A stretch of DNA of 18,760 bases from a virus (IMGVR_UViG_2563366883_000018), one strand, 5' to 3'; positions 1-18,666 are shown, counted from the stretch's first letter. Numbers and translations are program-made. The notes: generated by a model not told the origin, from the letters alone.

Positions 1-1284
1 TTACAGACTTCTGGAAGGTTGCGCAGCTCTTACAACACGCGGTTGATCTTCCGCAGCGTCTTCCAGTGCACTTAAATCACGGTCTTTCACTTCTGGCATT
101 TTCAGCGCAGAGATTAAACCAATCACTGAATATGCCATGATCATAATGGCGATTGGATACCAGGATTCCGTCATGGTGCAGAAAATACCTGCCAGGATAG
201 GACCAAAACCGGAAGCGATAAGACCACCAATTTCTTTTGAAATAGCCATCCGGGTAAAGCGGTTTTTACAGCCGAACATTTCTGCCATGGTAATGTTTTC
301 CAGAGCAAATAATCCCAGCACCGCACAGTTATGAATCACAATCAGTGCAACCATAATGGTGCTCGGGGCATAGCTTTTATCTACGATGATAGAAAGCATT
401 GGCCATGCCAGCACAATCGCGGAGGTATTCATAATAATATACGGGATCCGGCGACCAATTTTATCGGATAACCAACCAAGGAACGGAATGGTCATAAAGC
501 CGAGAATCGAACTGATCATCAATGCATCTGTTGGAATTGCTTTGTTAAACAATAACGTCTGTACTAAATAGCCTGCAAGGAAAGTCTGAATTAACCCGGA
601 GTTACCTGCCTGACCAAAACGCAGTCCTGTTGCCAGCCAGAAGGATTTGCTCTGGAACATGCTACCAGCAGGTGCAAGTTTTGCTGTCGGTTGGTTGCTG
701 TCGTTAACCTTCTCAAAGACCGGGCTTTCTTTCAGATTCATACGTAACCAGATAGCAAAGACCATCACGACAACGCTCGCCAGGAACGGTATACGCCATC
801 CCCACGCCAGCAGTTCCTCTTTACTGAGAATGAAGAACATAAAGGCCCAGATTGCCGTTGCGCTCAAGGTTCCGCAGTTAGTTCCCATAGCTACAAATGA
901 GGAGATAATTCCGCGCTTACCTTTTGGCGCATATTCCGCCAGCATCGTACCGGCACCGGAAATTTCCGCACCTGCACCCAACCCCTGAATAATACGCAGC
1001 GTCACCAGCAAGATGGGGGCAAAAACACCAATCTGTGCATAGGTCGGTAACACACCAATTAAGGTGGTACAGATCCCCATCATGGTGATGGTAATAAAGA
1101 GCACTTTTTTACGCCCTATTCTGTCGCCCATTTTGCCGAAAATAAATGCTCCGACAATACGCGCCACATAACCTGCACCGTAGGTTCCCATTGCCAAAAT
1201 TAACGCCATTGCCGTTGATGATTCAGGAAAAAATATTTCATGAAACACTAACGCTGCGCCGAGCGAATATAACTGGAAATCCAT
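1..1284 (-). CDS. ydfJ: MFS-family transporter (KgtP/ProP/ShiA-like), 427 aa; appears to lack the region before and including TM1, with an in-frame stop two codons upstream of the first Met
   Basis: ORF track 1..1284(-); ATG at 1284-1282, TAA at 3-1; translation has multiple hydrophobic spans and a GRK/GRR-type loop motif (DRIGRKK, DKIGRR) typical of MFS transporters; N-terminus aligns by recollection to about residue 35 of KgtP. Confidence 0.85.
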   Translation of the reverse strand: MDFQLYSLGAALVFHEIFFPESSTAMALILAMGTYGAGYVARIVGAFIFGKMGDRIGRKKVLFITITMMGICTTLIGVLPTYAQIGVFAPILLVTLRIIQGLGAGAEISGAGTMLAEYAPKGKRGIISSFVAMGTNCGTLSATAIWAFMFFILSKEELLAWGWRIPFLASVVVMVFAIWLRMNLKESPVFEKVNDSNQPTAKLAPAGSMFQSKSFWLATGLRFGQAGNSGLIQTFLAGYLVQTLLFNKAIPTDALMISSILGFMTIPFLGWLSDKIGRRIPYIIMNTSAIVLAWPMLSIIVDKSYAPSTIMVALIVIHNCAVLGLFALENITMAEMFGCKNRFTRMAISKEIGGLIASGFGPILAGIFCTMTESWYPIAIMIMAYSVIGLISALKMPEVKDRDLSALEDAAEDQPRVVRAAQPSRSL

Positions 1285-2069
1285 AATTCACAGGTGTTTT
1301 TTCCCATCCTGTGGTTTCCTTGGCGTTTTCTAGGTTTTTTCAGATAGTTGCATTTTTTAAAAAGCATCCTAAGTTCGATCTCAGTGTCTATCTGGGGCCT
1401 ATTTCTGTCCCATATATGCCCCAAAAAAACTCCCCAACAGATAAGTAGTTTTTTCATGGATTTATGCGTAAAATCAAGAACGGCTGGAAATCATTCAATA
1501 CTCACACTATCGAAAAATTTACCAGCCAACCGCAGCACGTTCTTGCATAAGGCGTGTCTGCGGTTTTTCAACTATTCAGATACATCACTCCCATCACATT
1601 CATTCCTCCGCATCAAAGGCATATAGGCTATATCACCTTGATATTTTTCTTCTTCAGATAAAAACTGTTATCTATGTATACTTTTAAACCCAATCCGTGT
1701 AGAGTCTCTGCATAAGATAGTTTGCAGTTGCCGCTTCAGCTTGCGCCATAAACCGCCTGATTTTTGCTGCCACCTGTTAGCATTCCTGTATACCTGAAAC
1801 GACAATGTTTATCTACGAACTTTAAGAACACCCAAGATAAAAATTGTCAACTATATCATATATAACACATTACTAATTCGAGGCTATATGAACAGCATAC
1901 TGATAATCACTTCTCTCCTTATCATGTTCAGCATTTTTAGTCATGCCCTAATAAAATTAGGGATTGGCATATCCAATAACCCAGACAAAACCGATGTATA
2001 AGCCAACATATCCTGAATCAGACATACAATATCGCAATGAAAATCAATAATATTTTAAGGAATATCTTC

Positions 2070-2303
2070 ATGAAATCAAAAGACACCCTAAAGTGGTTCC
2101 CTGCGCAGCTTCCTGAAGTAAGAATTATCCTAGGGGATGCTGTAGTGGAAGTAGCAAAACAGGGAAGACCTATCAATACCAGAACATTGCTTGATTACAT
2201 TGAAGGAAACATAAAGAAAAAATCATGGCTGGATAACAAAGAATTATTACAAACAGCGATATCAGTTCTTAAAGACAACCAAAATTTAAATGGTAAAATG
2301 TAA
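2070..2303 (+). CDS. ydfK: Small prophage protein, 77 aa (cold-shock-associated YdfK/YnaE family)
   Basis: ORF track 2037..2303(+); internal ATG at 2070 is preceded by AAGGAA (2056-2061) and gives the 77-aa length I recall for YdfK; the 2037 ATG has no SD. Confidence 0.75.
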   Translation: MKSKDTLKWFPAQLPEVRIILGDAVVEVAKQGRPINTRTLLDYIEGNIKKKSWLDNKELLQTAISVLKDNQNLNGKM

Positions 2304-2532
2304 TATAATAAACTTACTTTTTTATCATTTTTCCACTTTAACAACATTTTGCTCCACTTTTCCACGACCAAACAACTTGAAATCTGGTTAAAATAACACG
2401 CAACACTATTCTTCTTCCTTGAGTCCGCCCGGAACTCGAAAAACAAACCGAGTTAAAGCCATTTTTCACAAAATCGATTTTGGGTCTCACCAAAATTACG
2501 GGGTTGCATACGCATTCGTTTATTTTCGAACG

Positions 2533-2552
2533 TGTACATACAAATATGTACA
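2533..2552. promoter_or_regulatory. Perfect 8-bp-arm palindrome TGTACATA-CAAA-TATGTACA about 70 bp upstream of pinQ; candidate operator or protein-binding site
   Basis: Read directly from sequence; function not established. Confidence 0.3.
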
Positions 2553-2619
2553 AAAATAATCAAAATTATTTTCTGAGATGCATTATGATATGAACACCAA
2601 TTTCGTATAGAATCTCACT

Positions 2620-3210
2620 ATGTCTCGAATTTTTGCTTACTGTCGGATATCAACGCTGGATCAGACCACCGAAAATCAACGCCGGGAAATCGAAAGTGCA
2701 GGTTTTAAAATCAAACCTCAGCAAATAATCGAAGAACACATTAGCGGCTCAGCAGCAACCAGTGAGCGTCCTGGTTTTAACCGGTTGCTTGCTCGCCTGA
2801 AATGTGGTGATCAATTGATTGTGACAAAACTGGATCGCCTTGGTTGTAATGCAATGGATATCAGGAAAACAGTGGAACAACTGACCGAAACAGGTATCAG
2901 AGTGCATTGCTTAGCATTGGGGGGCATTGACCTGACCAGTCCAACAGGAAAAATGATGATGCAAGTAATTTCAGCAGTCGCTGAATTTGAACGAGACCTT
3001 TTACTTGAACGCACTCATTCCGGGATAGTAAGAGCCCGCGGCGCAGGGAAACGTTTTGGTCGACCACCTGTGTTAAATGAAGAACAGAAACAGGTGGTAT
3101 TCGAACGAATTAAGTCAGGTGTAAGTATAAGTGCCATTGCCCGGGAATTCAAAACCTCGCGGCAAACCATTTTAAGAGCCAAAGCAAAACTTCAGACACC
3201 TGACATATAA
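2620..3210 (+). CDS. pinQ: Serine recombinase (resolvase/invertase family, PinQ/PinR-like), 196 aa
   Basis: ORF track 2620..3210(+); N-terminal YCRISTLDQ motif with catalytic Ser10, C-terminal HTH region; strong recalled similarity to K-12 PinQ/PinR. Confidence 0.93.
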
Positions 3211-3307
3211 AAAATAATCTCGGTGTGAGATGCTTTACGTCTTCCAAGCCCCCTTCCTTGCCGTAAATGGAAAGATACATCTAATTATAGAATTTATATG
3301 TTTTACC

Positions 3308-3883
3308 CTACGGCAGTGCTGGCCATTCAATATCCTGTGCAGTTGACGTATCAACACGGTTCAGCAATACCCGATACTTTTTCCATGCTTCCAGCAACGA
3401 GATTTCTTCCTCCGTTGCAATTTCCAGATCTGCAGCATCCTGAAGCGGCGCAATATGCTCACTGGCTACCTGCATCAGGTTGTTTTTTGTTTCTTCCGCC
3501 TCCCGGATCCGGAACAGTTTTTCTGCTTCCGTATCCTTCACCCAGGCTGTGCCGTTCCACTTCTGAAACTCCCCTTCCGGGGATAACCAGGTGACATTTT
3601 CCGGTAATGGGCCAAGTTCAGAAATAAATAACGCGTCGCCGGAAGCCACGTCATAGACGGTTTTACCCCGATGATCTTCAACGAGATGCCACGATGCCTC
3701 ATCACTGTTGAAAACAGCCACGAAGCCAGCCGGAATATCTGGCGGTGCAATATAGGAACTGTTTGCTGGCAGACCTGTATGAGGCGGAATATATGCGTCA
3801 CCTTCACCAATAAATTCATTAGTTCCTGCCAGCAGATTATAAATTTTTATGGTCCGTGGTTGTTCACTCATTCTGAATGCCAT
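3308..3883 (-). CDS. tfaQ: Tail fibre assembly protein (Tfa family), 191 aa
   Basis: ORF track 3308..3883(-); ATG at 3883-3881 overlaps the stf stop by 1 nt (TAATG), indicating translational coupling; lambda Tfa-like sequence. Confidence 0.9.
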
Positions 3884-6798
3884 TATGCAAGCCTCACAAT
3901 GTAGTTAAATGCGATGTTTTTGACAGTGTTTTCCGCGTTACCAGCAGCGTTAACGGTGATGGTGTGTCCATGTGAGCCAATCGCAACAGAGTGCGTATGA
4001 GCACCAATACCGACAGTATGTGCGTGAGCACCTGCAGATGCAGCTGTGCCGCTGACACTATGAGTGTGCGCTCCTGCAGCACTTGTATTCACACTGGCCG
4101 CAGACACTACCTTATGTACTGACCCATTTTGTGACCACTGGCTGACTGCTGATGCGCCTGTGACACTATGAGTATGGTTTCCGGCACTTGCGGCTGTACC
4201 GCTCACACTGTGCGTATGCGCCCCGGTGTTATTCGTGGATTTAGTGCCGTAATCAAACGACGATGTGGTTTTCGTCCCCAAATCCGTACTGGATGCACTG
4301 GCGCTGTGGGTGTGCGATTTAATGCCGTCCTGTTCCTGAGATAATACGGCCCGACCACTGGCAGGTTTGCCCTTAATCGTCCAGCCACGCATATCAGGGA
4401 TCACGCCTGACGGATAAGCGGTTGCAAGTTTCGGGTAAGCGGATTTGTCAAAAGTCTGCCCCTGCATCAGGGCATAACCAGACGGAACGGTATCTGATGG
4501 CCACGGGATTGGTGCGCCAGGCGGATAAAACTGCTCTGATGGCGTATAGAGTGAATAAACTGTACCGTCCGTTAACCCTTCCGGCTTATTAGCAGAATAT
4601 GCTGGTGACGTATGAATAGTCACGCTGGCATTACTGGTATAATCCCATTGAATATTTACACCAGTCGCATAATTTCCGATTGCAACGTAAATATCGTAAG
4701 TATCACCAGATGTATTGACCCAGGCAAAATTTGTAAACCCTGTCGATGTGCGCTGCCATAAAGCACCAGTAATCCCCTTCGGATTACCATTACCTGCACG
4801 CAAAACAAGTTCAGATATACCTGCCTGTTGAGGTGACCCCACGTTAAATCCCGCGCCACCAATCAACGTAATTGAAACAACAGAACTCGCCTGTGGCATG
4901 GTTACCGTTGCTAATTTGAACCAACCAGCACCACCGCTGAAGGACATTGTTGTTGAGTTAAGCGTACCAATATCTTTCGGCGTCAGTGTTATATCCGCTG
5001 AAAGCGCCTTACCATTCACCTTACGGGCAGAAGGTACCCGACCATTCGCATTATCATTAGCTGCTTTCACTGCTTTCGGTGTCGCGGCAAGCGTTTCAGA
5101 TGCGCTGTTGGTTGCACTACTGAGCTGGACAATTCCTTTTTGTGCTGTCGTAGCGTCCTGAGCAGTATATTTCCCGTTAGCAAGGTCATAGGCTGCCTTT
5201 ACCGACTTTGGCGTTGCCGCCAGCATTTCAGATGTGCTGTTGGTCGCGCTGCTGAGCTGAACTATCCCTTTCTGTGCTGTCGTTGCATCCTGTGCGGTGT
5301 ATTTCCCGTTAGCCAGCTCATACGCGGCCTTAACGGCTTTTGGCGTTGCCGCCAGTGACTCGGAAGTGCTGTTAGTCGCACTGCTGAGCTGTACTATCCC
5401 CTTTTTCGTCGTGCTCGCATCCTCAAGCGCCACGGCGGATGCAATATCCTCTGCCCGTTTTGCCGCTGTCTCGGCGCGCGTTGCCGCGGATTCCGCCGTA
5501 CTTTTGCTCTGAGCTGCCGCCGTCGCACTGCCAGCTGCCTCTGTCGCCTTCGTGGATGCCGTCGTGGCGCTGCCCTTTGCTGCTGACGCCTGTCTGGTCG
5601 CCTCATCTTTTGAAGCAGACGCAGATGATGCCGATGACGCCGCCGAACTGGCGGACGATGCGGCAGCCGTTTTTGAGGATTCTGCGCTGGTTTCCGACGC
5701 TTTCGCGTTCGTCTCGGATGTCTTCGCTGCGGAAGCAGACCTCGCTGCTGCGCTGGCCTGTTCAGTGGCTTCGCCAGCCTTCGTTGTGGCTGTTGAAGCG
5801 GACGATGCGGCGCTTTCTGCCGATTTTCCGGCAGCGGTGGCACTGGCTGAGGCCTGCCCGGCACTTGTTGACGCGGCACTGGCAGACGACGCAGCCGCTG
5901 TTTTTGAGCCTGCCGCAGCTGAGGCGCTCTGTCCCGCTGCCGTCTCAGAAGACCTGGCGTTCGTCTCGGACGTTTTTGCCGCCTTCGCGGAATTTGCTGC
6001 CGCCGTTGCCGAGGAAGCTGCGCTACTGGCGCTCGAGGATGCGTTCGTTTCTGATGATTTTGCCGCCTCTTTTGAAGCCGACGCATCCCGGGCTGAGGTG
6101 GCAGCTTCTGACGCTTTCGTAGTCGCGGTGGATGCAGAAGTGGCGGCTGATTGTTGTGACGCTGCAGCATTCGTTTCTGACGTTTTCGCGGCAGCGGCAC
6201 TGGTAGCTGCCGCGCTTTTTGAGGACTCTGCAGCGGCAGCACTTTTTTCCGCTTCAGTGGCCTTTGTTGATGCCGTTCCTGCGCTGGAAGACGCTGACTG
6301 AGCCGACGAAGCGGCCTGTCCGGCTGACGTGCTGGCTGCACGTGCTGAATCTGCAGCATCAGTCGCATGGGTTGCCGCCTCACGGGCAGATGTGCCGGCA
6401 TCACTGGCTGACTTCTTCGCGGCTGCCGTGTTCTGTGCCACCACGGACGCGTTACGCGCCACCTCTTCCACCATCTGTTCAAAACGGCGCAGTGCCTCCG
6501 GACGGGCATCATCCTCCGTCATGGCACCGAGAAAATCATTCAGCGTACCGGGTTGAGAATCTTCATACACGGTGATGGTCCCGGCATGTGACGGCGGGAA
6601 TCCTTCCACCAACAGAATAACGCTGTACTGCCCGTACTCAACGTCCATGCTGTAACGCCCGGCTTCATCCGGATTTTCTGAGGCCAGCGTGTTCACCACC
6701 ACCGTGGTGCTGTTACGTTTTGCTTTCAGCTGGATTGTGCAGTTCTGTACCGGTTTTCCTGTGCCATCTTTCAGTACACCTGAAATCTTTACTGCCAT
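3883..6798 (-). CDS. stfQ: Side tail fibre protein, full length (about 971 aa from ATG at 6798): lambda-Stf-like N-terminus, long Ala/Ser/Thr-rich central region, three tandem fibre repeats, His-rich HTHS C-terminal domain
   Basis: ORF track 3883..6804(-) begins with GTG; the ATG two codons in gives [26 protein letters not shown] (lambda Stf N-terminus as recalled) and is preceded by GGGGTGA; C-terminus ...[39 protein letters not shown] matches the lambda Stf C-terminus. Confidence 0.9.
5040..5410. repeat. Three tandem copies of a repeat of about 129 bp inside stfQ, encoding ...[44 protein letters not shown] (third copy degenerate)
   Basis: Visible in the protein (three near-identical 43-aa units) and in DNA (e.g. 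5091-5210 versus 5221-5340); boundaries approximate. Confidence 0.8.
5420..6470. repeat. GC-rich low-complexity region of stfQ encoding the Ala/Ser/Thr-rich segment; source of several spurious long alternative-frame ORFs
   Basis: Protein shows reiterated [18 protein letters not shown] motifs; DNA is dominated by GCNGC triplets; boundaries approximate. Confidence 0.7.
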
Positions 6799-6814
6799 AT
6801 TCACCCCACAAAAA

Positions 6815-6836
6815 AGCCCGCCTGAACCGGCGGGCT
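6815..6836 (-). terminator. Rho-independent terminator on the minus strand downstream of the lom fragment: 7-bp GC stem (6816-6822 with 6829-6835), then a T-run on the minus strand
   Basis: Minus strand reads ACAGCCCGCCGGTTCAGGCGGGCTTTTTTGTGG; the T-run overlaps the stf ribosome-binding region. Confidence 0.6.
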
Positions 6837-6862
6837 GTCATAACACTGTGTTACCTGGCTAA

Positions 6863-7300
6863 TCAGAACTTATAACCGACACCCACGATGAAACCGTCAG
6901 TGCGCCAGTCGCCACTGCCGGAGCCTTCATAAGCAATATCAATGGCCACGGATTCGGTCGGGTTAAACTGCACGCCAGCTCCCCACGCCAGAGACGTGTT
7001 GCTGTGGCGACCGTCATCACTTCCGGTCAGCACGTCGTGCGTTTTCCCCTTGTTGTCAGTTACGCGGAGATAATCCCCGGAGAAAGTCGACACACGGCTG
7101 TAAGCCATACCCGCCATCGCATACGCGCTGAACCATTCATTCACGCGCACAGACGGCCCCACCATCACGCTGAACCAGCGGTTACGCACGGAATCTTCAT
7201 GCCAGCGGGTATCGCTGTAACGGGTAAGCTGGCGATTCTTGTCTCCTGCATAGCTGCCGGACCCTCCATCCAGAATGACGCAATACGTGAACGCCGGGGA
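6863..7300 (-). pseudogene. lom: C-terminal fragment of a Lom/Ail/PagC-family outer-membrane beta-barrel protein; N-terminal part and signal peptide absent
   Basis: ORF track 6863..7189(-); frame stays open upstream to a stop at 7301-7303; translation ...[22 protein letters not shown]...AYEGSGSGDWRTDGFIVGVGYKF matches lambda Lom from about residue 85 to its C-terminal F. Confidence 0.75.
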
Positions 7301-8259
7301 TCACCATAACGACTGCCATCTGCATTGATGGATTCACCATCCCGTAACCAGACCCCACGTCCGTTCAGCTCGCGTTTTTGTTCAGGCAAAATCCGTCCTG
7401 AACAGGAAGGACACTGAATATAAGCCGCCTCACTTGCCAGCACAGGATCGGCAATATCACGGAAACCAGCAACCACATCGCCGCAGGGCTGAAAATACTC
7501 ACCACAGTGTGGACAGGGCCAGTACCAGCGACGGCGATCGCCACGGTTATAGAGCGACAGGATCCCCGTGGTTGGTGGAGCCTCATGCGGTGAAGTCCGT
7601 CGCCATTTCACATCCTTCACATCCCTGCCGGGGGAACTCTCCACCAGCGTCATACCACTGGACATAAATGTGGTGGTACGTTTTGAGGCAAGAGAGAAGG
7701 CATCCCCCTCACCATCAATATCTTCCGGAAAACGGTCATAATCCGTCAGCGCCACGCATTTATAATCTGATGAAGACATGATATTGACTGACGGCCAGCC
7801 GATTTTCAGGTAGTTGCCAGCAAGGAATGTTCTGTCATAAACGTTGTTGTCATTTTTGTTCGGACTCAGGCGACTGACCACTTCCGGGCTGACGCGAAAC
7901 GTTCTGGCGAGTCGTTTTTTGGAGTGTTCGCGGGCTTTTTCCTCCGTCATCTGAATGATCAGCATATCAGCAGGATCGCAAATCACGTTGTAAATCACCC
8001 AGCCGTCAATCAGGCCGATAGTCTTGCCGGTTCGTGCCGGGCCAACAAATATCACTGCGTCGTATTCACGCGAGGCCAGGCAGTTCATAGGCTCAATAAC
8101 ATACGGTGCCACCAGCGGATCCCACGGGACTGAGTTCCCTGCCCCCATAGGCACCCGCATATACTGAGCAACGGCATCAGCAACCCGCATTCGTCTCGGT
8201 GCGCGAAGGATATAACCTGAATCGGTTCGTGCTGCCTTTGCGGTTTCCTGATTCAGCAT
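7165..8259 (-). pseudogene. N-terminal fragment of a GpA-family large terminase subunit; the last ~40 codons of the ORF are out-of-frame lom sequence
   Basis: ORF track 7165..8259(-), 364 aa; P-loop GPARTGKT and CPHCGE zinc-finger-like motif as in lambda gpA; lambda gpA is about 641 aa, so the C-terminal half is missing; ATG at 8259 overlaps the nohA stop (TAATG). Confidence 0.8.
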
Positions 8260-8753
8260 TACTCCTCCTGCTGTAATTCCTCCTCATCATCCGCACCTGC
8301 TTCAGTCACCCGCAGGGCTATCTGATCGCGCAGATCATCAATAATGGACTGAACACGGCTCACAGCGGCAGGCTGCAGACCGCAGTCACGTTCAAGAATA
8401 TCCGGTAATGTCTCCAGCACCTGCACGACCGCTTTTGCCCAGATGGCAAACTCCCGTCTGACATCACTGGCCGGAATGAGTTGTGCCGTTTCCTGTTCGA
8501 ACTTAAGACGCTCACGTTCAGACTGATACCAGGCTTTGCGCTCATGCGCGTCCATTTCGCCTTCTGCAACCGGCGGTGGTAATGCCAGAAATGCCGACAC
8601 AATATCAACCACCCGATAAAGCTTGAGGTTGCTTTCATGCCCCCCTGCAACGGGTAGATTTTGCAGCCTTGCCGCAGCAGTCTGGCGATGTACACCTGAC
8701 AATGCCGCCAGTTGACTGATATTCAGCGTCAGATTTTTTAACTCTCGATCCAT
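8259..8753 (-). CDS. nohA: Terminase small subunit (Nu1-like), 164 aa, with N-terminal HTH
   Basis: ORF track 8259..8753(-); N-terminal HTH-like [24 protein letters not shown], acidic C-terminus; position immediately downstream of a cos-like site and upstream of the large terminase; the gene symbol rests on position and on a recalled NohA/NohQ identity. Confidence 0.8.
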
Positions 8754-8899
8754 ACCCGCTCCAGAATGTTTTAAACATGTATCTTGCGAACAACTTTAGG
8801 CAAACGGTGTTAGTGATGAACAAAAAACAATCAGAATCGACACCATAAAAATAAAACCACTGTAATATCAATCAATTACAGTAGTGGTGATGACGAATA

Positions 8900-8968
8900 A
8901 AATTTCAAAAACTAGCCTTTTTCCGCGACGCTCCCGCCCCGTGGCAGGGGCCCCCACCGGGAGGACCC
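8900..8968 (-). other. cos site of the lambdoid prophage (cosQ-cosN-like segment, with cosB presumed between it and nohA)
   Basis: Minus strand reads GGGTCCTCCCGGTG-15 nt-GGGGCGGGAGCGTCGCGG...TTTTTGAAATTTTATTCGTCAT, paralleling the lambda cos junction GGGTCCTTTCCGGTG-15 nt-GGGCGGCGACCTCGCGGG...TGAAAATTTTCC...TTCGTCAT as I recall it. Confidence 0.5.
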
Positions 8969-8992
8969 GACAGCCTGACAGCCTGACAGCCG
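8969..8992. repeat. Three tandem copies of an 8-bp unit GACAGCCT (last copy GACAGCCG) next to the cos-like element
   Basis: Read directly from sequence. Confidence 0.8.
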
Positions 8993-9127
8993 TGATGAGC
9001 ATCTGATACAGCGCTTTACATAATGGCATAGGAATAATTCAGAAGGACATCACAGCATGCCCACACAAATTAGTGTGAGTGTCCTGTTTCTTCCTACGCA
9101 CAGGACTGACGAGCATGAGGGGAAAAT

Positions 9128-9295
9128 ATGCGAACCATAAATGCCTCATCTTCAGCAATGCAACCGGCATCCGAACAGGACGATATTGTAAATTCACCTA
9201 ATTACGAGGACATTGCAGTAGTTGAATTGCAGCTCTGTATTAGCCTGACAGTGACAGAATGCGATATTGACTCTGTCACAGGTGAAATAGTTTGA
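9128..9295 (+). CDS. Hypothetical acidic small protein, 55 aa (below the ORF-track threshold)
   Basis: ATG at 9128 preceded by GAGGGG (9117-9122) with 5-nt spacing; TGA at 9293-9295; no recognisable domain. Confidence 0.3.
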   Translation: MRTINASSSAMQPASEQDDIVNSPNYEDIAVVELQLCISLTVTECDIDSVTGEIV

Positions 9296-9315
9296 ATGAT
9301 TAGCAGTTATGGTGC

Positions 9316-9522
9316 TCAGTCAACCACCAGGGAATAATCCTTCGAATTCTTATCGTGCTTCACCAACGCTGCCTCAATTGCCCTGAATGCTTCCAGAGAC
9401 ACCTGATGTTCTATACATGCAATTACAACATCCGGGTAACTCATAGAAATGGTGCTATTAAGCATATTTTTTACACGAATCAGATCCAACGAGAGTTCAT
9501 CAGCAGATTGTTCTTTATTCAT
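9316..9522 (-). CDS. Hypothetical prophage protein, 68 aa
   Basis: ORF track 9316..9522(-); ATG start with upstream GGAG at 7-nt spacing; lies between nohA and ydfO, where K-12 Qin has ynfO, but I cannot confirm identity. Confidence 0.45.
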
Positions 9523-9822
9523 TTTGTCGCTCCATGCGTTTGCTCGTCATCTAGCGGTTAAAATATTACTTCAAATCTTACTGCATAAAAGAGGAAAAGT
9601 ATGAAAGTTTGAGTACATCGACCTTACATACATCTGTCGGTTGCATATCCCTCCTGGATGCCAGCAAGGCTCAATTTTGTTACGCAATCAACACTATTCA
9701 TTAAAAACAGGCTTAATATTTGACATAAATCATCAACAAAACACAAAGAGGTCAGACCAGATTGAAACAATAAACACGATAATGCTAACTACGCGCCATC
9801 GTATCACATGGAAGGTTTACCA

Positions 9823-10254
9823 ATGGCTCAGGCTGCCATTTTTAAAGAAATATTCGATCAAGTGCGTAAAGATTTAAACTGTGAATTATTTTATTCTGAG
9901 CTAAAACGTCACAATGTCTCACTTTATATTTACTATTTAGCCACAGATAATATTCACATTGTGTTAGAAAACGACAACATAGTGTTAGTAAAAGGACTCA
10001 AAAAGGTTGTAAATGTTAAATTCTCCAGAAACAAACATCTTATAGAGACCTCCTATAATAAGTTGTAATCAAAAGAAATCACATTTCAACAATACAGGGA
10101 AAATCTTGCTAAAGCAGGAGTTTTCCGATGGGTTACAAATATCCAGGAACACCAAAGATATTACTATGCCTTTGATAACTCATTACTATTTACTGAAAGC
10201 ATCCAGAAAATTACTGAAAGCATCCAGAAAACTACACAGATCTTACCACGCTAA
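9823..10254 (+). pseudogene. ydfO: YdfO-like (DUF1398-type) prophage gene interrupted by an in-frame TAA at 10066-10068, with an in-frame 21-bp tandem duplication near the 3' end
   Basis: ATG at 9823 preceded by GGAAGG; the frame is continuous from 9823 to TAA at 10252-10254 except for the single stop; the segment after the stop reads ...[44 protein letters not shown]..., which looks like genuine protein sequence. Confidence 0.65.
10190..10231. repeat. Perfect 21-bp tandem duplication (TTACTGAAAGCATCCAGAAAA x2), in frame within ydfO ([14 protein letters not shown])
   Basis: Read directly from sequence. Confidence 0.9.
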
Positions 10255-10405
10255 ACCATAACGTCTGGCTTCTCTCACTCCTGAGCCGGACTGCATTGGT
10301 TTAATAAAAACCATCAACAATTGTGATTTAGATATTCGGAACCATTCAAATATAACAAAACCCCGTAAAAACGAGGTTTATGGATAAATTTTATTATTGA
10401 ATACA

Positions 10406-10579
10406 TCAGATTAAATTAATCTTGACATCATAGCTTTCAAGACCCGTCATTTTTTCCCGTGCGGTAAACTGAATACTGGTAACTTCTTTCCCGGTCTTTT
10501 TCTTAAGTTCAATAATTTTTTTTGTTATATATTCAGAAATATCTGCTTCTGCTTTTGTTTTTAAGTCTTCAATATTCAT
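10406..10579 (-). CDS. gnsB: GnsA/GnsB-family small protein, 57 aa (below the ORF-track threshold)
   Basis: Manual translation of the minus strand: MNIEDLKTKAEADISEYITKKIIELKKKTGKEVTSIQFTAREKMTGLESYDVKINLI; GAGG 5 nt upstream of the ATG; length and sequence fit recalled GnsB. Confidence 0.8.
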   Translation of the reverse strand: MNIEDLKTKAEADISEYITKKIIELKKKTGKEVTSIQFTAREKMTGLESYDVKINLI

Positions 10580-10750
10580 CATTTCCTCTTTTAGTCTGTT
10601 ATGACTTTCCAGTTACACAGTAAGTCGATTATATGGTGCAAACGTGTAAAAGATAAGATGAAACATCGCAATAATCAACATACGATAGTCTAAATTTTAC
10701 ACAAACAGACAAAGAGAATTTTCCTGAATTATCAATGCAATAGCATCAAA

Positions 10751-10981
10751 TCAACTCAAGAGCCTTATTGCTGCTTCCAGAATTTCTTCTGAAGTAACAT
10801 GTCGATCCGCGGCTACATAAATGACTTTATGATCTCCGGTCAGAGATGGAAACCCTGCGGCCATTACAGTAAGGTGTGTTTTTTCGCCATTTGGATATTC
10901 ACGCATGATGGTGTTAACTCCAGTCATCGCTGGCACTACCACTGCTGGTTCAGAGTTAAAAAAAACTATGATTTTTTTCAT
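10751..10981 (-). CDS. Hypothetical prophage protein, 76 aa, immediately upstream of gnsB (possibly ynfN/YmcE-like)
   Basis: ORF track 10751..11023(-); the internal ATG at 10981 (MKKIIVFF...) gives 76 aa; identity with ynfN not confirmed. Confidence 0.5.
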   Translation of the reverse strand: MKKIIVFFNSEPAVVVPAMTGVNTIMREYPNGEKTHLTVMAAGFPSLTGDHKVIYVAADRHVTSEEILEAAIRLLS

Positions 10982-11252
10982 GATGTTACCGTAGTATGTG
11001 AGTATCCATCGAATAGACACCAAGCAAAAAAGCTCCCGAAGGAGCCTTCATTTTCACTTTTTTAAATCCAACGACAGACGGCTGGCATTTAAGTATTGTG
11101 AAATATTATCAAATGTAATCATCATTGATTTACAAAAGATACATTTTGCCCCGAAAGGATTCATGTCAGAAACATCAAAAGATGATGTTCTATACTGGGA
11201 ACCATGACAACACGGGCATCTAAAGTGAATATGGTTTGTAATATTGTCTACC

Positions 11253-11465
11253 TCAAAGCGCCACTACATGAACAGCGGCAGGACCTTTAGGTCCGTTCTC
11301 AATACCAAATTCAACTTCCTGATTCTCAGTTAATGTTTTGAAATCGTTGCTCTGAATTGCTGAGAAATGGACAAACACATCTTTGCTGCCATCTTTCGGC
11401 GTGATGAAACCAAAACCTTTTTCAGGGTTAAACCATTTCACTAAACCAGTCATTTTGTTAGACAT
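11253..11465 (-). CDS. cspI: CspA-family cold-shock protein, 70 aa
   Basis: ORF track 11253..11465(-); [13 protein letters not shown]...KGFGFI...FVHFSA cold-shock domain with RNP1/RNP2 motifs; followed on the minus strand by a long AT-rich leader (11466 to about 11650). Confidence 0.93.
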
Positions 11466-11826
11466 AATTATTACCTTTTGAAGAAATTAGCCCTTGGGCA
11501 GAATGGTCCGAAAAAAATATCAGAGAGAAAAACCAACAAGGAAATCTCAAGAGGTACAAATAATAAAATTATAACAATGACTGCTTCAGATAAATTTGTA
11601 ACAAACCAGAACACCATTAACGCATGATTAACCACCCATAGCAAGGATTACTTTTGTAAAGAAAAACACAGCAATGAAAGAATAGCTTTATTTATTAATA
11701 AAACGTGTCATTCTGATTAAGACCTTTTATCTTACCCTTAAGATTTCAGGAATTTTGGCTCATGGAAGAGTCCTTTTTATTCAAATTTTACATTCCGCGA
11801 TGTAAATGTTCCGATTTAATATTACC

Positions 11827-12850
<1,024 letters not shown>

Positions 12851-12854
<4 letters not shown>

Positions 12855-13162
12855 AGATATTTATGATGAGGACGCTCGTGCTTATTGGCAGGATTTTCAA
12901 TCTTAAAGGAGTACTGATGCTGCAGATAAGACTCAACTTTTTCTGACAATTTTTCTGCTACTTCCAGGAAGACTTGCCGGACGCTCCTTCTGGCTGCTGC
13001 CTCATAAAACTCCAGCGCAGCTCCTTCAACACGGTCCATGGCGACATCCAGGTCAAAAATTTCACCGTCAAAGCGTTCTTTGTCCTGTAAGGCTACAGTT
13101 ACCGTAACTTTATTCTCAAAATTACGGACTCCTTTCACAACCAGTTCATAGTCTTGAGTCAT
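12851..13162 (-). CDS. ydfR: Prophage protein of unknown function, 103 aa, between holin and endolysin
   Basis: ORF track 12851..13162(-); ATG start with GAGGAGAG 7 nt upstream; recalled YdfR. Confidence 0.8.
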
Positions 13163-13166
13163 TGGA

Positions 13167-13382
13167 TTACTCTCCTCTCGCAGCCTTACGCCTGTCTTCT
13201 TTAATCTTGAAATAAAGATTTGTCAGATACGTCAGCAGGCCAAAAACCAGGCTACCCAGCACACCGATTGCAGCCCACTGTGACGGAGTTACTTTATCGA
13301 GTAACTGCAATGCCCAGAAACCAGCATTACCCGCCGATGTGCCATAGGCAACACCTGTTGTTAACTTATCCATTGATTTCAT
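13167..13382 (-). CDS. essQ: Class II holin, phage-21 S-type pinholin, 71 aa, with dual-start motif MKSM
   Basis: ORF track 13167..13457(-); the internal ATG at 13382 gives [71 protein letters not shown], near-identical in pattern to recalled S21. Confidence 0.9.
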
Positions 13383-13601
13383 ATCCTCACCCCGATGTAC
13401 ACGGATGGTGCAATATGTTTGAAAAGATCGGAGTCTACGGGGTAGTTTTGACAGCACACGTTGTTCTCAACGGCGCTAAAAAAACATACACATTAAAAAT
13501 ATGGGTAATTATTTTGAAAGAAAGTCATATATAAAATAATAATACGAGAAATGTTTTCATATTTAGTGTACTGTATACGGCCATTTATACAGGAAAAGCC
13601 T

Positions 13602-13772
13602 ATGTCAGAACGTAAAAACTCAAAATCACGCCGTAATTATCTCGTTAAATGTTCCTGCCCAAACTGCACCCAAGAGTCAGAACACAGTTTTTCAAGAGTA
13701 CAAAAAGGTGCCCTTTTGATCTGCCCTCATTGCAACAAAGTATTCCAGACAAATCTTAAAGCTGTAGCCTGA
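13602..13772 (+). CDS. Small zinc-ribbon protein, 56 aa (CPNC ... CPHC)
   Basis: ORF track 13551..13772(+); the internal ATG at 13602 is preceded by AGGAAAAG; two CxxC pairs; diverges from the late operon. Confidence 0.55.
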   Translation: MSERKNSKSRRNYLVKCSCPNCTQESEHSFSRVQKGALLICPHCNKVFQTNLKAVA

Positions 13773-13825
13773 TTGATTTTATTAGTAACAAGTATTTTTT
13801 ATATTTTAATAATATATTTAAAGCA

Positions 13826-13853
13826 GATAATAAAAAACCCGCCTGAGCGGGTT
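13826..13853 (-). terminator. Rho-independent terminator hairpin (stem AACCCGC/GCGGGTT, loop CTGA) with a strong T-run on the minus strand; weaker on the plus strand
   Basis: Minus strand reads AACCCGCTCAGGCGGGTTTTTTATT; about 280 nt downstream of the cspB stop and 60 nt downstream of the zinc-ribbon ORF. Confidence 0.55.
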
Positions 13854-14135
13854 TGAGATTGTGGTGCTTTTTGTGGGAGTCATCCACTTACGCACTTTGT
13901 TTTGCCATGCCAGCAGTTAGCTTCTGCTGTAAAACTATTCAGGCAGCAAACCTGCACTTCACCACAATGGTTAGCATACTTTTCCTGATTAAGATTTTGC
14001 CAAATATGCTAGCCATTGTTTCATGTATTGGACCTCCTTACTTTTTATTAAAGAGATCCAATATTCACTACTCTGTCCGTATCTCTACTCAGGCATCAGC
14101 CTTCTTCGTTATCGTATACAGACGAGCGATGAATT

Positions 14136-14351
14136 TTAATCAGTAATGATGACATTTGCTGCTGCAGGACCTTTAGCACCACTCTCTATAGAGAAGGTAA
14201 CCTTTTGACCTTCAAATAAGGTTCGATAATTATCATTCTGAATCGCAGAAAAATGCACAAACACATCTTTACTACCATCAACAGGAGAAATAAAGCCGAA
14301 ACCTTTATCAGCGTTAAACCATTTTACTAAACCAGTCATTTTATTTGACAT
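14136..14351 (-). CDS. cspB: CspA-family cold-shock protein, 71 aa
   Basis: ORF track 14136..14351(-); [21 protein letters not shown]... cold-shock domain. Confidence 0.93.
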
Positions 14352-14651
14352 TCTACATTCCTTAACTTGAGCCTTTCGGCATAAATGGTTTGCATAACAG
14401 AAACGACTTCGTACTTAATTGGAGAGACTCAAAGAAGGAATAAGTGAATAACACCTGAAATGAGAACTGCTTTAGTAAACTACTTCGTATATCGTCTGTT
14501 CTTCAAACCGACGCAATCATTAACGCATAGTTGAACATATGAAGCAATGTTTATTTTAGACATCCAGCCATCTTCAACCCCATCAAAAAACTATAGCTTT
14601 CTTCAGGAACGTGTGTATAGTGCGCCAAGTTATCAGTATTAAGGAATTTTT

Positions 14652-14864
14652 TTGTCCCGTAAAATGACAGGAATTGTCAAAACCTTTGACGGCAAAAGCG
14701 GCAAGGGCCTTATCACCCCATCCGATGGTCGTATCGATGTCCAGCTTCATGTTTCAGCGCTCAATCTCCGCGATGCAGAAGAAATTACCACCGGATTACG
14801 CGTGGAATTTTGCCGGATAAATGGTCTGCGTGGCCCTTCAGCTGCCAATGTTTACCTTTCATGA
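14652..14864 (+). CDS. cspF: CspA-family cold-shock-like protein, 70 aa, divergent from cspB
   Basis: ORF track 14652..14864(+); apparent TTG start (MSRKMTG...); cold-shock domain with a divergent RNP region. Confidence 0.85.
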
Positions 14865-14918
14865 GCTATATTAAAGCTTTAATTTCAGGCCCCATCGGAT
14901 CACACATGGAGAGTTTTT

Positions 14919-15008
14919 ATGAATAACCCCGTCTGTCTTGATGACTGGTTGATTGGCTTTAAAAGCTTATGCTGTACTTTGGCCGTAATAGCTCTGCTAA
15001 TAATATAA
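14919..15008 (+). CDS. Candidate small hydrophobic protein, 29 aa ([29 protein letters not shown])
   Basis: ATG at 14919 preceded by GGAGAG at 5-nt spacing; hydrophobic C-terminal half; no homology known to me. Confidence 0.25.
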
Positions 15009-15156
15009 TAAGCAGACTCATTGTGTTTAGGGACATTGTACTGGAAGAAAACATTTTAAACATCAGGCAAATAACCAAGTCACCAGCTAAATAATAAGTT
15101 AACAGACATGAGTCCCGGGATGAGATTCAACATTACCATTGCCCCATTTAAAGCAC

Positions 15157-15192
15157 AAAACCCGCTCATCAGCGGGTTTTCTACTTTTTCTT
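15157..15192. terminator. Bidirectional rho-independent terminator (stem AACCCGCT/AGCGGGTT, loop CATC) between convergent cspF and quuQ; on the minus strand a candidate tR'
   Basis: Plus strand hairpin followed by TTTTCTACTTTTTC; minus strand hairpin followed by TTTTGTGCTTT. Confidence 0.6.
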
Positions 15193-15225
15193 AGCGTCGG
15201 GTATACAAAGCCCATCGTTGAAAAA

Positions 15226-15254
15226 ATTTTATCCATATTTTTTGAAAAATGCAA
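15226..15254 (-). promoter_or_regulatory. Candidate Q-dependent late promoter (pR'-like): -35 TTGCAT, 17-bp spacer, -10 TAAAAT on the minus strand
   Basis: Read from sequence; lies 32-60 nt downstream of the quuQ stop and about 40 nt upstream of the terminator hairpin. Confidence 0.4.
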
Positions 15255-15285
15255 ACATCATGTCGCCATCTTCAGCAAAAATCAT

Positions 15286-16038
15286 TTATCTCGTCACCTT
15301 CCTCAATTGCGCTTCCGCGTATGCTTCTTCCTGCCAGCACTTTGTTACCAGTTTACCAATGACGTCCGCATACCCCTTATACCACTGATAATCGGTCAGG
15401 TCTGGTACCAGCTTCTGGACATGACGTCGTGCCAGCGTGGTCGGTAAACGACTAAACCGGTTTCCATTACAACGCCCACAAATCTTATATACCGGTACGC
15501 CATGAAACCGGGTTCTTTTTTCATCCAGAACAATCCCTTTACCCTTACACCCTCTGCACGCTGTGCTGGCTTCGCCCTTACCATGGCAATGCTGACATAG
15601 TTCCTTCACCCATTCTTCCTTGATTACAGATTCCCCGCGTCTGTAGTGTTTCACCACTTCGCGCAATACATTATAAAATCCCGTACCTGAACAATGCTCA
15701 CAGCGAGCCTTACTTGCCGCAGACCTGGAGTAATCAGCAAAGGCAAAACTCACGAGGTAAGGAATAATCTGTAACCGGATTTCTTCACTCAATTTGTTCA
15801 ATGTCGGGTTATCCAGTGCCATCGCGTAATTTAGCAGGCCTTCAATCGCAAACTGAGGGTCCTGAACACCAACTTTTGCCAGAAATAAGGCCAACCCAAG
15901 TGGTGCTTTCGACTGCACCATCCCCTGCGCTGCCATTACATCCGTAATTGTTAAACAACCGGTGCCTGCCGCTGGAGCGTCATCGCTCAATTTTGGAGAT
16001 TTTGGGGAGTAATATTTTGGTAAGGCTTCAAGGTTCAT
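15286..16038 (-). CDS. quuQ: Late-gene antiterminator Q-like protein, 250 aa
   Basis: ORF track 15286..16068(-); the internal ATG at 16038 is preceded by GGAG and gives 250 aa; several CxxC pairs (CEHC, CQHC, CRGC, CGRC). Confidence 0.88.
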   Translation of the reverse strand: MNLEALPKYYSPKSPKLSDDAPAAGTGCLTITDVMAAQGMVQSKAPLGLALFLAKVGVQDPQFAIEGLLNYAMALDNPTLNKLSEEIRLQIIPYLVSFAFADYSRSAASKARCEHCSGTGFYNVLREVVKHYRRGESVIKEEWVKELCQHCHGKGEASTACRGCKGKGIVLDEKRTRFHGVPVYKICGRCNGNRFSRLPTTLARRHVQKLVPDLTDYQWYKGYADVIGKLVTKCWQEEAYAEAQLRKVTR

Positions 16039-16051
16039 GCTCGTTCTCCAC

Positions 16052-17101
16052 TTACGCCAGTACGCCAATTGCCAGCGCGCGATCGATAAAACGAAATATC
16101 AGCTCCAGTTGGGAGCCATACTTATCTTCAAATGCCACTGTATCCGTATGCAGCTCGTTGTGATGCTTTCTGCACAAAGGCAACACAAAGAGATCATGTG
16201 CTTTTGTTCCCATTCCGCCCTGCCCGTGACCAATCAGATGATGCGGATCGTCGGCTGGCATACCGCAGCAAGCACACGGCTGTGTCTTAACCCAACGTGT
16301 GTATTTCTCCTTAACCCAGCGGCGACGTTTAGGCAGCTTCATGAAAGATTCCGGAGACTCTGGATCAACGGTGATGCTTACCACCGTCTTTTCCTGTGGT
16401 GATTTTTGTTGCTGGTGGGCGTAAGGCAACGGTGCAAGATTTTTTGTGCGTTGTTTCAATATGCTGGTGGCGGTCTGCTCTCCCGGTACGATGTCGCTTT
16501 CGCGGTACACCGAGCAGATTTTTTCCGCTGGTAATCCCAGCGAACGACGCGATACAGCCTCAGGTAGTGCATCCACCACCTGATTGCAGACCGCCCACCA
16601 GGATAATTCAGCCAAAGATAATTCCCGCTCCTGCGTACCGCTTATTGCGTGACGGATGACGTCAATCACCCATGCTGTCAGATTTTGTTGAGCAAGCAGC
16701 TCCAGTGATTCCGATGTCTGGTCACGCAGTTGGTTGTCGCAGTGCCAGCACAACACCATTGCGCCGGTACCATAACGGTGAATGACTGTTTCAGTGTGAT
16801 GGTAATCGCCATTAGGCCACTGGCAGGATGTAACATGACGTAATAGCCAGTCGGACAATGCGCCAACGCCGCCAGCAGCACGAATCACCCGTTCGTTACT
16901 AAAAAACGGCAGCAATGTTTTGTCTTCCGCCAGCGGCTGGCGAACGGCAGGAACGACTCCGGATGGCAGATTACGCATGCTTTTTGGTTCCGGTTCCACC
17001 AGCACTCGAGGATTATGAAATATCTGTATGGATTCACGGCCCGGCTTAAGGACCACCAGCCCAAGCTCAGGCACCAGAACAGGTCTAAGTAATACCCGCA
17101 C
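16052..17101 (-). CDS. ydfU: DUF968-family prophage protein, 349 aa, with C-terminal Cys/His HNH-like motif
   Basis: ORF track 16052..17140(-); the GTG at 17101 gives the 349-aa length I recall for YdfU and sits 1 nt after the upstream ORF's stop; C-terminus CACCG...HHLIGHGQGGMGTKAHDLFVLPLCRKHHNELH. Confidence 0.8.
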   Translation of the reverse strand: MRVLLRPVLVPELGLVVLKPGRESIQIFHNPRVLVEPEPKSMRNLPSGVVPAVRQPLAEDKTLLPFFSNERVIRAAGGVGALSDWLLRHVTSCQWPNGDYHHTETVIHRYGTGAMVLCWHCDNQLRDQTSESLELLAQQNLTAWVIDVIRHAISGTQERELSLAELSWWAVCNQVVDALPEAVSRRSLGLPAEKICSVYRESDIVPGEQTATSILKQRTKNLAPLPYAHQQQKSPQEKTVVSITVDPESPESFMKLPKRRRWVKEKYTRWVKTQPCACCGMPADDPHHLIGHGQGGMGTKAHDLFVLPLCRKHHNELHTDTVAFEDKYGSQLELIFRFIDRALAIGVLA

Positions 17102-17102
17102 G

Positions 17103-17381
17103 TTACCTCCAGATCCGTTGCTGGAAAGTGCGGGACGCACGTGGTGGGCGTTCGGAATAAGGCAGCCTGACAGAGATTATCCAGTGCCGATAGTCGAGAC
17201 TGAGAGCTTTCTTAACCTCGAACCCGCGCCTGCGGTAAGAATGAATCAGCCATTCGGCCTGTTCTGCAGTGCATGGAGGGTGCTGGAACCATTCAGACTT
17301 GAATGCGTGAGAATACCGCCCGTGCGTGCAGGCAAGAACGGGCGAATTATCAGAATTGTAATATTTTGCGTTGCGTGCCAT
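17103..17381 (-). CDS. Hypothetical prophage protein, 92 aa
   Basis: ORF track 17103..17381(-); ATG start with GGAG 8 nt upstream; stop abuts the ydfU start. Confidence 0.6.
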   Translation of the reverse strand: MARNAKYYNSDNSPVLACTHGRYSHAFKSEWFQHPPCTAEQAEWLIHSYRRRGFEVKKALSLDYRHWIISVRLPYSERPPRASRTFQQRIWR

Positions 17382-17447
17382 CGGTTTTCTCCGGTGGCAC
17401 GGTGTTACTCAGCGGGAGTTCAGCCCCGCGCAAGATTGTAGATGAGT

Positions 17448-17699
17448 TTATTCTCCTGAAAAAGCAGAAAAGCCAGCTTTTATTCCGATCTCTTTCAATG
17501 CCTGTAATGAAGTGACAAACTCACCTTCGCGCAAGATAAATCCGTCCGTGACCCGAGCATCCACAAAATTAATTAACGCAGCCCCATTCTTTCGCAAACA
17601 CATAATGCGGTAATGACTAACAAGATTTCCATTTTCAACGCACACAGCATAGAGGCCATCTTCACAAAAAATTTTACGCAGTTCTTCGATGTTCATCAT
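17448..17699 (-). CDS. Hypothetical prophage protein, 83 aa (position and length fit K-12 rem, sequence identity not verified)
   Basis: ORF track 17448..17699(-); begins MMNIEEL... Confidence 0.6.
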   Translation of the reverse strand: MMNIEELRKIFCEDGLYAVCVENGNLVSHYRIMCLRKNGAALINFVDARVTDGFILREGEFVTSLQALKEIGIKAGFSAFSGE

Positions 17700-17814
17700 C
17701 AGAATCCTTCCGGATAATTAGCTCTCCCCTTTAAGGGACCATCCCTCTTATCCCTGCGCGCTACTTAAGTATTTTTGATTCTATTCCGGCACCGTCCAGA
17801 ACTTCAAACGCGTT

Positions 17815-17847
17815 GAAAATAAAAACAAAAACCCGCCGAAGCGGGTT
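17815..17847 (-). terminator. Rho-independent terminator of the relB-relE-hokD operon (stem AACCCGC/GCGGGTT, loop CGAA, then a long T-run on the minus strand)
   Basis: Minus strand reads AACCCGCTTCGGCGGGTTTTTGTTTTTATTTT, about 70 nt downstream of the hokD stop. Confidence 0.65.
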
Positions 17848-17915
17848 AAGTGCGGGTGCGTTGAGGATGCCTGCCACATCAGAGGTGGCGAGGGATTTCT
17901 CCCCCGCCGGGTCTC

Positions 17916-18071
17916 TTACTCCTCAGGTTCGTAAGCTGTGAAGACAGCGACCTCCGTCTGGCCGGTTCGGATTCGTACCTCGCAGAGGTCTTTCCTCGTT
18001 ACCAGTGCCGTCACTATGACGGTTAAACAGATGACGATCAGGGCGATTAACATCGCCTTTTGCTGCTTCAT
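17916..18071 (-). CDS. hokD: Hok-family type I toxin, 51 aa (below the ORF-track threshold)
   Basis: Manual translation of the minus strand: MKQQKAMLIALIVICLTVIVTALVTRKDLCEVRIRTGQTEVAVFTAYEPEE. Confidence 0.9.
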   Translation of the reverse strand: MKQQKAMLIALIVICLTVIVTALVTRKDLCEVRIRTGQTEVAVFTAYEPEE

Positions 18072-18142
18072 AGCCTGCTTCTCCTGTCAACGCAAAGCAG
18101 AAGTGTCACCTTCGGTGCGAAACAGAGATGTCATGCTTTGGT

Positions 18143-18430
18143 TCAGAGAATGCGTTTGACCGCCTCGCTATATACTTCCGAGCGTTCTCTTTTCCCAACA
18201 GAAATCACGAAAACGACAACTTTCTCGTCTATAACCTGGTATACAAGGCGATAGCCTGAAGACCGGAGCTTAATCTTGTAACAATCAGGCATACCACGGA
18301 GCTTGTTTGCTTCAATCCGGGGTGACTCAAGTACTTCAACCAGCTTCTTTTTCAACTGTTCACGTACCGTCGAGCCCAGCTTTCGTCATTCCTTTAGTGC
18401 CCGCTCGTCAAAATCCAGAAAATACGCCAT
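18143..18430 (-). pseudogene. relE: relE mRNA-interferase toxin gene with an in-frame TGA at codon 15
   Basis: Minus strand from ATG 18430: MAYFLDFDERALKE-TGA-RKLGSTVREQLKKKLVEVLESPRIEANKLRGMPDCYKIKLRSSGYRLVYQVIDEKVVVFVISVGKRERSEVYSEAVKRIL; the stop occupies 18388-18386 where recalled K-12 RelE has Trp; the ORF-track 70-aa ORF is only the part after an internal TTG. Confidence 0.85.
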
Positions 18431-18666
18431 CAGAGTTCATCCAGCGTCACACGTACTGGCTTAGGATTACGAAGCCGTTCTTTCACTATCTCCACAAGTT
18501 CAGCATCTTCATCACTCAGGAGTGTCTGTTTGAACGGCAAGCGTTCATTGTCAGCGATATACTCGAGCATGAGACGAAGCGCTTCAGAAGGAGTTACACC
18601 CATTTTTTCAAGCGCGGCGTAAGAACGCGCTTTAAGTTCATCGTCAATACGCAGGTTAATGCTACC
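18430..18666 (-). CDS. relB: RelB antitoxin coding sequence (codons 2-79 plus stop); the native ATG is split by the IS1 end
   Basis: ORF track 18430..18681(-) starts at a TTG inside the IS1 inverted repeat; translation from codon 2 is GSINLRIDDELKARSYAALEKMGVTPSEALRLMLEYIADNERLPFKQTLLSDEDAELVEIVKERLRNPKPVRVTLDEL; the stop overlaps the relE ATG (ATGA). Confidence 0.85.
   Translation of the reverse strand, partial: GSINLRIDDELKARSYAALEKMGVTPSEALRLMLEYIADNERLPFKQTLLSDEDAELVEIVKERLRNPKPVRVTLDEL

Follow-up and report, generated by a model that had tools for sequence, protein, structure and literature searches.

The ydfJ locus and its surroundings

The window (the whole 18,760-nt stretch that we analyzed, from IMGVR_UViG_2563366883_000018) begins with ydfJ, on the minus strand, and continues into prophage genes (Table 1). 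The product of the ydfJ reading frame has 427 amino acids and begins with MDFQLYSLGAALVFHEIFFPE (ORF call and translation). Its ATG lies at 1284-1282, and the frame ahead of it translates to ...KKHL*I-M, with the stop (TGA) at 1290-1288; as the first-pass annotation had said, the ORF begins at the first methionine right after an in-frame stop. YdfJ from the window belongs to the metabolite/H+ symporter family TIGR00883, with a score of 451.5 bits (the curated cut-off is 443.45 bits); an intact YdfJ allele scores 462.9 bits. The DNA past the break in ydfJ is the tail-fiber end of a lambdoid prophage, with ynfT, ydfK, pinQ, tfa, and stf.

Table 1. Features at the ydfJ end of the window.
Feature	Coordinates	Strand	Basis or remark
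Truncated ydfJ (codons 29-455, MHS-family MFS transporter)	1..1284	minus	427-codon open ORF; start is internal Met29
Attachment core TTATGGATTTC (exact, 11 bp)	1276..1286	minus (read)	Four-way alignment; contains the Met29 ATG
In-frame TGA, from the phage arm	1288..1290	minus	One codon 5' of the remnant's ATG
Non-coding phage arm, tail-fiber side	1287..1586	.	Contiguous with the integrase-side arm in free phages
ynfT, first small prophage gene (37 aa)	1888..2001	plus	Sequence; annotation in relatives and K-12
ydfK, prophage cold-shock gene	2070..2303	plus	ORF; annotation in relatives; K-12 comparison
pinQ, serine recombinase	2620..3210	plus	Adjoins tail-fiber genes in free phage as well
Tail-fiber ORF (973 aa)	3883..6804		

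The first 28 codons of ydfJ are missing

In the prophage-free E. coli strains SA53-3 and U15A, ydfJ has 1368 nt and encodes 455 amino acids. The intact protein starts with MTIEKHERSTKDLVKAAVSGWLGTALEF, followed by MDFQLYSLG... The gene order in both strains is ydfI, ydfJ, rspB, rspA, with no prophage; in empty-site strains, rspA, rspB, ydfJ, and ydfI all have the same orientation and are spaced by 11, 57, and 88 bp. Compared to the 455-residue alleles, ydfJ in the window lacks exactly codons 1-28. When the window is aligned to the empty-site DNA, the two are identical up to the ATG region and unrelated beyond ~1291. Because the DNA beyond the ATG is unrelated to the empty site, the 28 codons are truly absent from the window and not merely uncalled. 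A protein search found orthologs of YdfJ with 454-458 amino acids in Citrobacter, Enterobacter, Lelliottia, and Pantoea. The first-pass annotation's claim that ydfJ lacks its 5' end is thus correct.

Comparisons with MFS family models also show an incomplete N-terminus. The alignment of the window's YdfJ to TIGR00883 begins at profile position 7, and Pfam's MFS_1 aligns only from profile position 33 (the intact allele aligns from position 2). In the ShiA model and in the 432-position model NF007710/PRK10406, residue 2 of the window's protein falls on position 37; in the ProP model, it falls on position 40. The given name of NF007710/PRK10406 is "MFS family transporter"; we take it to be the model for KgtP. 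These positions confirm the earlier estimate that the N-terminus aligns to about residue 35 of KgtP-type transporters.

Could the 427-residue form be the natural protein, with the 455-residue forms being over-extended start calls and no truncation at all? A few homologs from other genera also have 427 amino acids (P0023 and P0118). But the 28 extra codons are missing from the window's DNA itself, and in an alignment of 29 YdfJ orthologs from several genera, residues 12-14 and 16-28 (DLV.AAVSGWLGTALEF) are invariant. Also, the lost residues align to the start of the MFS_1, TIGR00883, ShiA, ProP, and NF007710 models. As for P0118, an Enterobacter-like protein that does start at the same position, it is flanked by phage genes: it is preceded by genes for Arc, a Bro-N/P22 antirepressor, a tailspike head-binding domain, and a Peptidase_S24 repressor. 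Such short forms were thus truncated by phages, too. We rejected a natural 427-residue start because of the absent DNA, the invariance of residues 12-28, and the phage genes before P0118, and we give this explanation almost no weight.

The effect of the truncation on the first membrane helix (TM1) is less clear. The first-pass annotation had proposed that TM1 is missing. The N-terminus is indeed lost (28 residues), but part of TM1 remains (residues 29-47), so the helix is cut short instead. The window's YdfJ does not have the complete N-terminus and first membrane helix of its orthologs, and the cut falls inside the first predicted helix. The MFS_1 match begins at residue 21 of YdfJ, and the TIGR00883 match begins at residue 23. 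No 19-residue stretch in the N-terminal (TM1) region is more hydrophobic than residues 29-47 (mean 1.08); a Kyte-Doolittle scan gave weak and broad maxima at 13-31 and 24-46. An AlphaFold2 model of intact 455-residue YdfJ, built from 29 close orthologs, has low confidence (mean pLDDT of 40.8) and was used only as a hint of secondary structure; it places the first helix at residues 10-46. Among solved structures, a sequence search turned up distant MFS proteins (a fungal phosphate transporter, E = 3.5e-5, and SV2A) but no member of the MHS family. What is lost appears to be the cytoplasmic tail plus about half of TM1 (its first part), with TM1 shortened and not deleted.

The junction carries half of a phage attachment site

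To identify the attachment site, we compared four sequences: the empty site, the junction in the window, the integrase-side junction (from E. coli K-12 and from strain Res13-Sevr-PER07-33), and attP from the free phage mEp460. Written 5' to 3' along the coding strand of ydfJ, these are GCGCTTGAATTTATGGATTTCCAGTTATAT for attB (the empty site), ACACCTGTGAATTATGGATTTCCAGTTATAT for the junction in the window, GCGCTTGAATTTATGGATTTCAAGAGTCAT for the integrase-side junction, and ACACCTGTGAATTATGGATTTCAAGAGTCAT for attP of mEp460_ev081. The 11-bp core, which spans codons 28-31 of ydfJ, is present without mismatches in attB, in attP, and in both prophage junctions. The window contains one of the two junctions, and the duplication of the core, which the first-pass annotation had proposed looking for, is seen in the relatives K-12 and Res13. 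Past the core, imperfect identity runs on to ~1291 (TGAATT-ATGG in the window versus TGAATTTATGG in attB).

The match to the empty site breaks off sharply at 1286-1291 of the window (at 1290 for many prophage-less genomes). This pattern is not due to chance: thousands of genomes share the break point, and the flanking arm is 98.7-99.7% identical to attP of sequenced phages. In genomes with a split site, the two halves of attB overlap at query positions 82/85-100.

We then rebuilt attP as the core flanked by 300 nt from each arm, tail-side and integrase-side (611 nt in all), and we searched for it in sequenced phages. It matched in one piece, with 100% coverage and 98.7-99.7% identity, in mEp460_ev081, PhiR42_1, Tritos, and HannyBb. 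The two prophage arms are thus contiguous in these four free phages, which shows that half of a phage attP is what adjoins ydfJ in the window. The genome of mEp460_ev081 is arranged as tail fiber, tfa, serine recombinase, ydfK homolog, attP, integrase, and excisionase, and the 832 nt between the ydfK homolog and the integrase gene contain no annotated CDS. An integrase and an excisionase lie next to attP in mEp460_ev081 and, in Res13, next to rspB at the far junction, where the integrase is of the tyrosine type.

We also considered whether the 5' end of ydfJ was lost by a deletion, an IS element, or illegitimate recombination, without site-specific integration. The region is rich in IS elements and deletions: IS2 lies within intQ of K-12, an IS5-like element is beside the junction in SCPM-O-B-7615, and the prophage in the window has a 17-kb internal deletion. 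However, such events would not explain why the break is at the identical base in thousands of genomes, why an 11-bp core shared by attB, attP, and both junctions flanks it, why the two arms adjoin each other in four free phages, or why the lost codons are intact at the other end of the prophage. The contiguity of attP and the four-way shared core rule out this class of explanations for practical purposes; its chance of being correct is minute.

Instead, positions 1276-1291 are almost certainly the tail-fiber-side junction (attR, in the lambda convention) of a lambdoid prophage of the Qin / mEp460 type. The first-pass annotation's proposal of prophage integration inside the 5' end of ydfJ is borne out by the lambdoid tail-fiber-end DNA past the break and by the contiguous attP of the four phages.

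The attP arms also contain short repeats. The motif CAACTAT(C/T)TGA(A/T)AAA is present on both sides of the attP core (at 1336-1350 of the window and, in the integrase-side arm, at L009 4328-4342), and a 9-nt inverted copy lies further out (L009 4011-4019). These copies may be arm-type sites for the integrase or IHF-like sites, or they may be chance matches. As each family has just two copies, we do not claim them as binding sites.

The displaced 5' fragment

In K-12, the other end of Qin contains ynfP (b4534; L003 24729-24839), beside the pseudogene intQ and rspB. Its translation is MTIEKHERSTKDLVKAAVSGWLGTALEFMDFKSHAC (36 amino acids). YnfP consists of 31 residues of YdfJ, namely the 28 that the remnant lost plus M-D-F, which is encoded in the core, and of five phage-encoded residues. 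YnfP is expressed in K-12, where it was found as a small protein (PMC6001520, Table 1). In Res13-Sevr-PER07-33, the displaced fragment of ydfJ adjoins the intact integrase and excisionase genes. The displaced fragment had been expected at the other prophage end, beyond the window, and that is where it is found in both of these genomes.

The right end of the window is near relB, and the far junction of K-12 lies ~7 kb further on. We infer that the source genome still carries a far junction with ydfJ codons 1-28 next to rspB, which would read ...CTTGAATTTATGGATTTCAAGAGTCAT...

The prophage in the window

The prophage resembles Qin from K-12 in its insertion site, in its gene order, and in its high DNA identity: positions 1-4051 and 9745-18667 of the window are 98.7% identical to Qin. 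The tail-fiber gene is a mosaic. Positions 4181-4532 are only 92.9% identical to K-12, and positions 4518-5339, which lie inside the tail-fiber ORF, have no megablast match in Qin from K-12 or in the Res13 prophage. Relative to the Res13 prophage, ~17 kb are deleted at 7252-7256 of the window (L004 24073 to 41161). As a result, the lom region adjoins the 5' part of the large terminase gene, and the genes in between (portal, capsid, tail, and J) are gone. With these head and tail genes missing, the element is defective. Still, it is less decayed than Qin of K-12. Near pinQ and the tail-fiber genes, we looked for a Pin-type invertible segment and found no inverted repeats of at least 18 nt.

The whole window has an identical match in none of the 5426 complete E. 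coli genomes; the best match has 91% coverage and 97.5% identity. The source of the window, whether a strain or a close relative (for example, Shigella), is outside of this collection.

Occupation of the site across E. coli and in other genera

To see how often the site is occupied, we searched the 5426 complete E. coli genomes with a 200-nt probe across the empty site. The probe was unsplit in 2009 of the genomes (about 37%). We also compared positions 1-2600 of the window to the same genomes with megablast and required at least 80% coverage to count the junction. By this measure, the ydfJ-ynfT-ydfK junction is present in 1986/5426 genomes (about 37%). Among the remaining genomes, we inspected two, and both carry other prophages at the same base, with ydfJ flagged as "missing N-terminus." Overall, the run of rspA-rspB-ydfJ-ydfI is physically split in about 60% of E. 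coli genomes; this same Qin-type element accounts for the split in about 37% of genomes, and in the examples that we inspected, other prophages were found at the same base.

The two other prophages are lambdoid but not of the Qin type. E. coli O157:H7 C1-057 (L007 4285-7746) has a lambdoid prophage with a DinI-like gene and three DUF1076 (NleG-like) effector genes. SCPM-O-B-7615 (L008) has a remnant bearing nleC in the ydfJ site, and an IS5-like element lies beside the junction.

Similar arrangements occur outside of E. coli. In two Enterobacter-like contigs (L005 and L006, 2945-3045 plus the upstream genes), the ydfJ ortholog is truncated at the same Met29. The upstream genes are P22-like, encoding Arc, Bro-N/antirepressor, a tailspike head-binding domain, and an S24 repressor. 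The Enterobacter-like phage arm next to the core (GCACCTTTAAATCATGG) resembles the Qin arm (ACACCTGTGAATTATGG). This resemblance suggests that one integrase/attP module could be common to several genera and phage morphotypes.

A bolder reading is that codon 29 of ydfJ is a cross-genus hot spot for phages of differing morphotypes that share this integrase/attP module, and/or that YnfP and the Met29-initiated YdfJ have acquired new roles. As a hot spot, it would serve lambdoid phages in E. coli, including the effector prophages of O157:H7, and P22-like prophages in Enterobacter. We mention this as speculation and consider it unlikely.

Fate of the ydfJ remnant

In our best explanation, the tyrosine integrase of the phage recombined attP with the bacterial core TTATGGATTTC inside ydfJ. 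The promoter, the ribosome-binding site, and codons 1-28 remained with rspB at the integrase end (ynfP in K-12). Codons 29-455 remained at the tail-fiber end, behind phage DNA. Because this DNA has a TGA one codon upstream of Met29, the phage arm does not provide a replacement N-terminus.

We found no sign of new expression signals. A scan of 1150-2100 for promoters and terminators gave nothing above chance (upstream, 2 promoter-like sites were found, versus 3.3 expected), and the sequence contains no Shine-Dalgarno-like purine run within 15 nt of the remnant's ATG. Most likely, the 427-codon remnant is non-functional, having lost its own promoter and start signals as well as the first half of its first membrane helix. 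The prophage also probably cuts the remnant (ydfJ') and ydfI off from the upstream rspAB promoter.

On the other hand, the remnant might be alive: transcribed from phage promoters or by read-through, translated from Met29, and working as a transporter with a shortened first helix. Its ORF is open over all 427 codons, the cluster of the 427-residue form has 3723 members (from the protein search), the hydrophobic residues 29-47 are retained, and RefSeq keeps the remnant of K-12 as a CDS. Also, the RNA of ydfJ changed upon over-expression of DicC, which implies that some transcription occurs and that the loss of function may be incomplete. Set against these points are the lack of above-chance promoter-like sites or a Shine-Dalgarno upstream, the invariance of the lost segment in orthologs, the pseudogene flag given by NCBI's pipeline in other strains, and the loss of the promoter as described in a review (PMC6379469). 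On balance, we doubt that the remnant is a working transporter, and a non-functional remnant remains our preferred explanation. As to what the rspAB-ydfJ-ydfI cluster does, the literature on L-gulonate gave nothing usable, and we do not propose a substrate.

These findings bear on how ydfJ is annotated. RefSeq lists the 427-residue remnant of K-12 as a normal CDS named "putative transporter YdfJ," whereas the name in many records is "MHS family MFS transporter YdfJ." In the three prophage-occupied loci that we read (Res13, C1-057, and SCPM-O-B-7615), NCBI's pipeline marked the ORF as a pseudogene ("missing N-terminus"; in Res13, "incomplete; missing N-terminus"). Given the junction, ydfJ in the source strain of the window should be regarded as a remnant that is truncated at its 5' end, not as an intact transporter. 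Beyond correct annotation, the junction matters little.

Comparison with known prophages

The junction within ydfJ is already known, as it is described in the annotation of E. coli K-12 and in the literature. In the RefSeq annotation of K-12, the cryptic prophage Qin spans 1632277..1652745, with ydfJ (b1543, 427 amino acids) at one end and ynfP at the other. According to a 2019 review, the integration of Qin at the 5' end of ydfJ led to the loss of the promoter and to a truncation by 28 codons (PMC6379469). ydfJ is the insertion site of Qin in strains W, K-12, B, and Crooks (PMC3032704).

The element in the window shares with Qin of K-12 MG1655 the site, the core, the junction sequence, the 427-residue remnant of ydfJ, the order ynfT-ydfK-pinQ-tfaQ-stfQ, and the above-mentioned identity across two blocks of 4 kb and 8.9 kb. 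The two are not identical in sequence, however, and ~5 kb (window 4532-9745) that were lost in K-12 are kept here. These contain the 973-residue tail-fiber ORF, the gene for the small terminase subunit, and the 5' part of the large terminase gene. In K-12, intQ is a pseudogene that is interrupted by IS2.

The four phages mEp460_ev081, PhiR42_1, Tritos, and HannyBb match the window in their attP half (phage arm plus core, 98.7-99.7% identical) and in the order of the ydfK homolog, serine recombinase, tfa, and tail fiber. They differ in being complete genomes of 45-49 kb, whereas the element in the window is integrated and defective. Res13-Sevr-PER07-33 has a complete 46-kb prophage between rspB and ydfJ, with an intact tyrosine integrase and an excisionase. 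In two of the three blocks that it shares with the window, identity is 99.3-99.7%; in the tail-fiber block (5339-7256), it is 96.7%.

More broadly, the insertion in ydfJ resembles that of e14 in icd and of Rac in ttcA, as in these cases, too, a phage integrated site-specifically into one end of a protein-coding gene and a short core was duplicated (PMC6379469). The outcomes for the target genes are different. For e14, the 3' end of icd is duplicated, and a 163-bp pseudo-icd' copy is left behind; for Rac, only the N-terminus of TtcA is changed (PMC6379469). In the case of ydfJ, the phage arm closes the frame with a TGA just one codon ahead of Met29 and brings no substitute N-terminus, so the gene has lost 28 conserved codons and its promoter.
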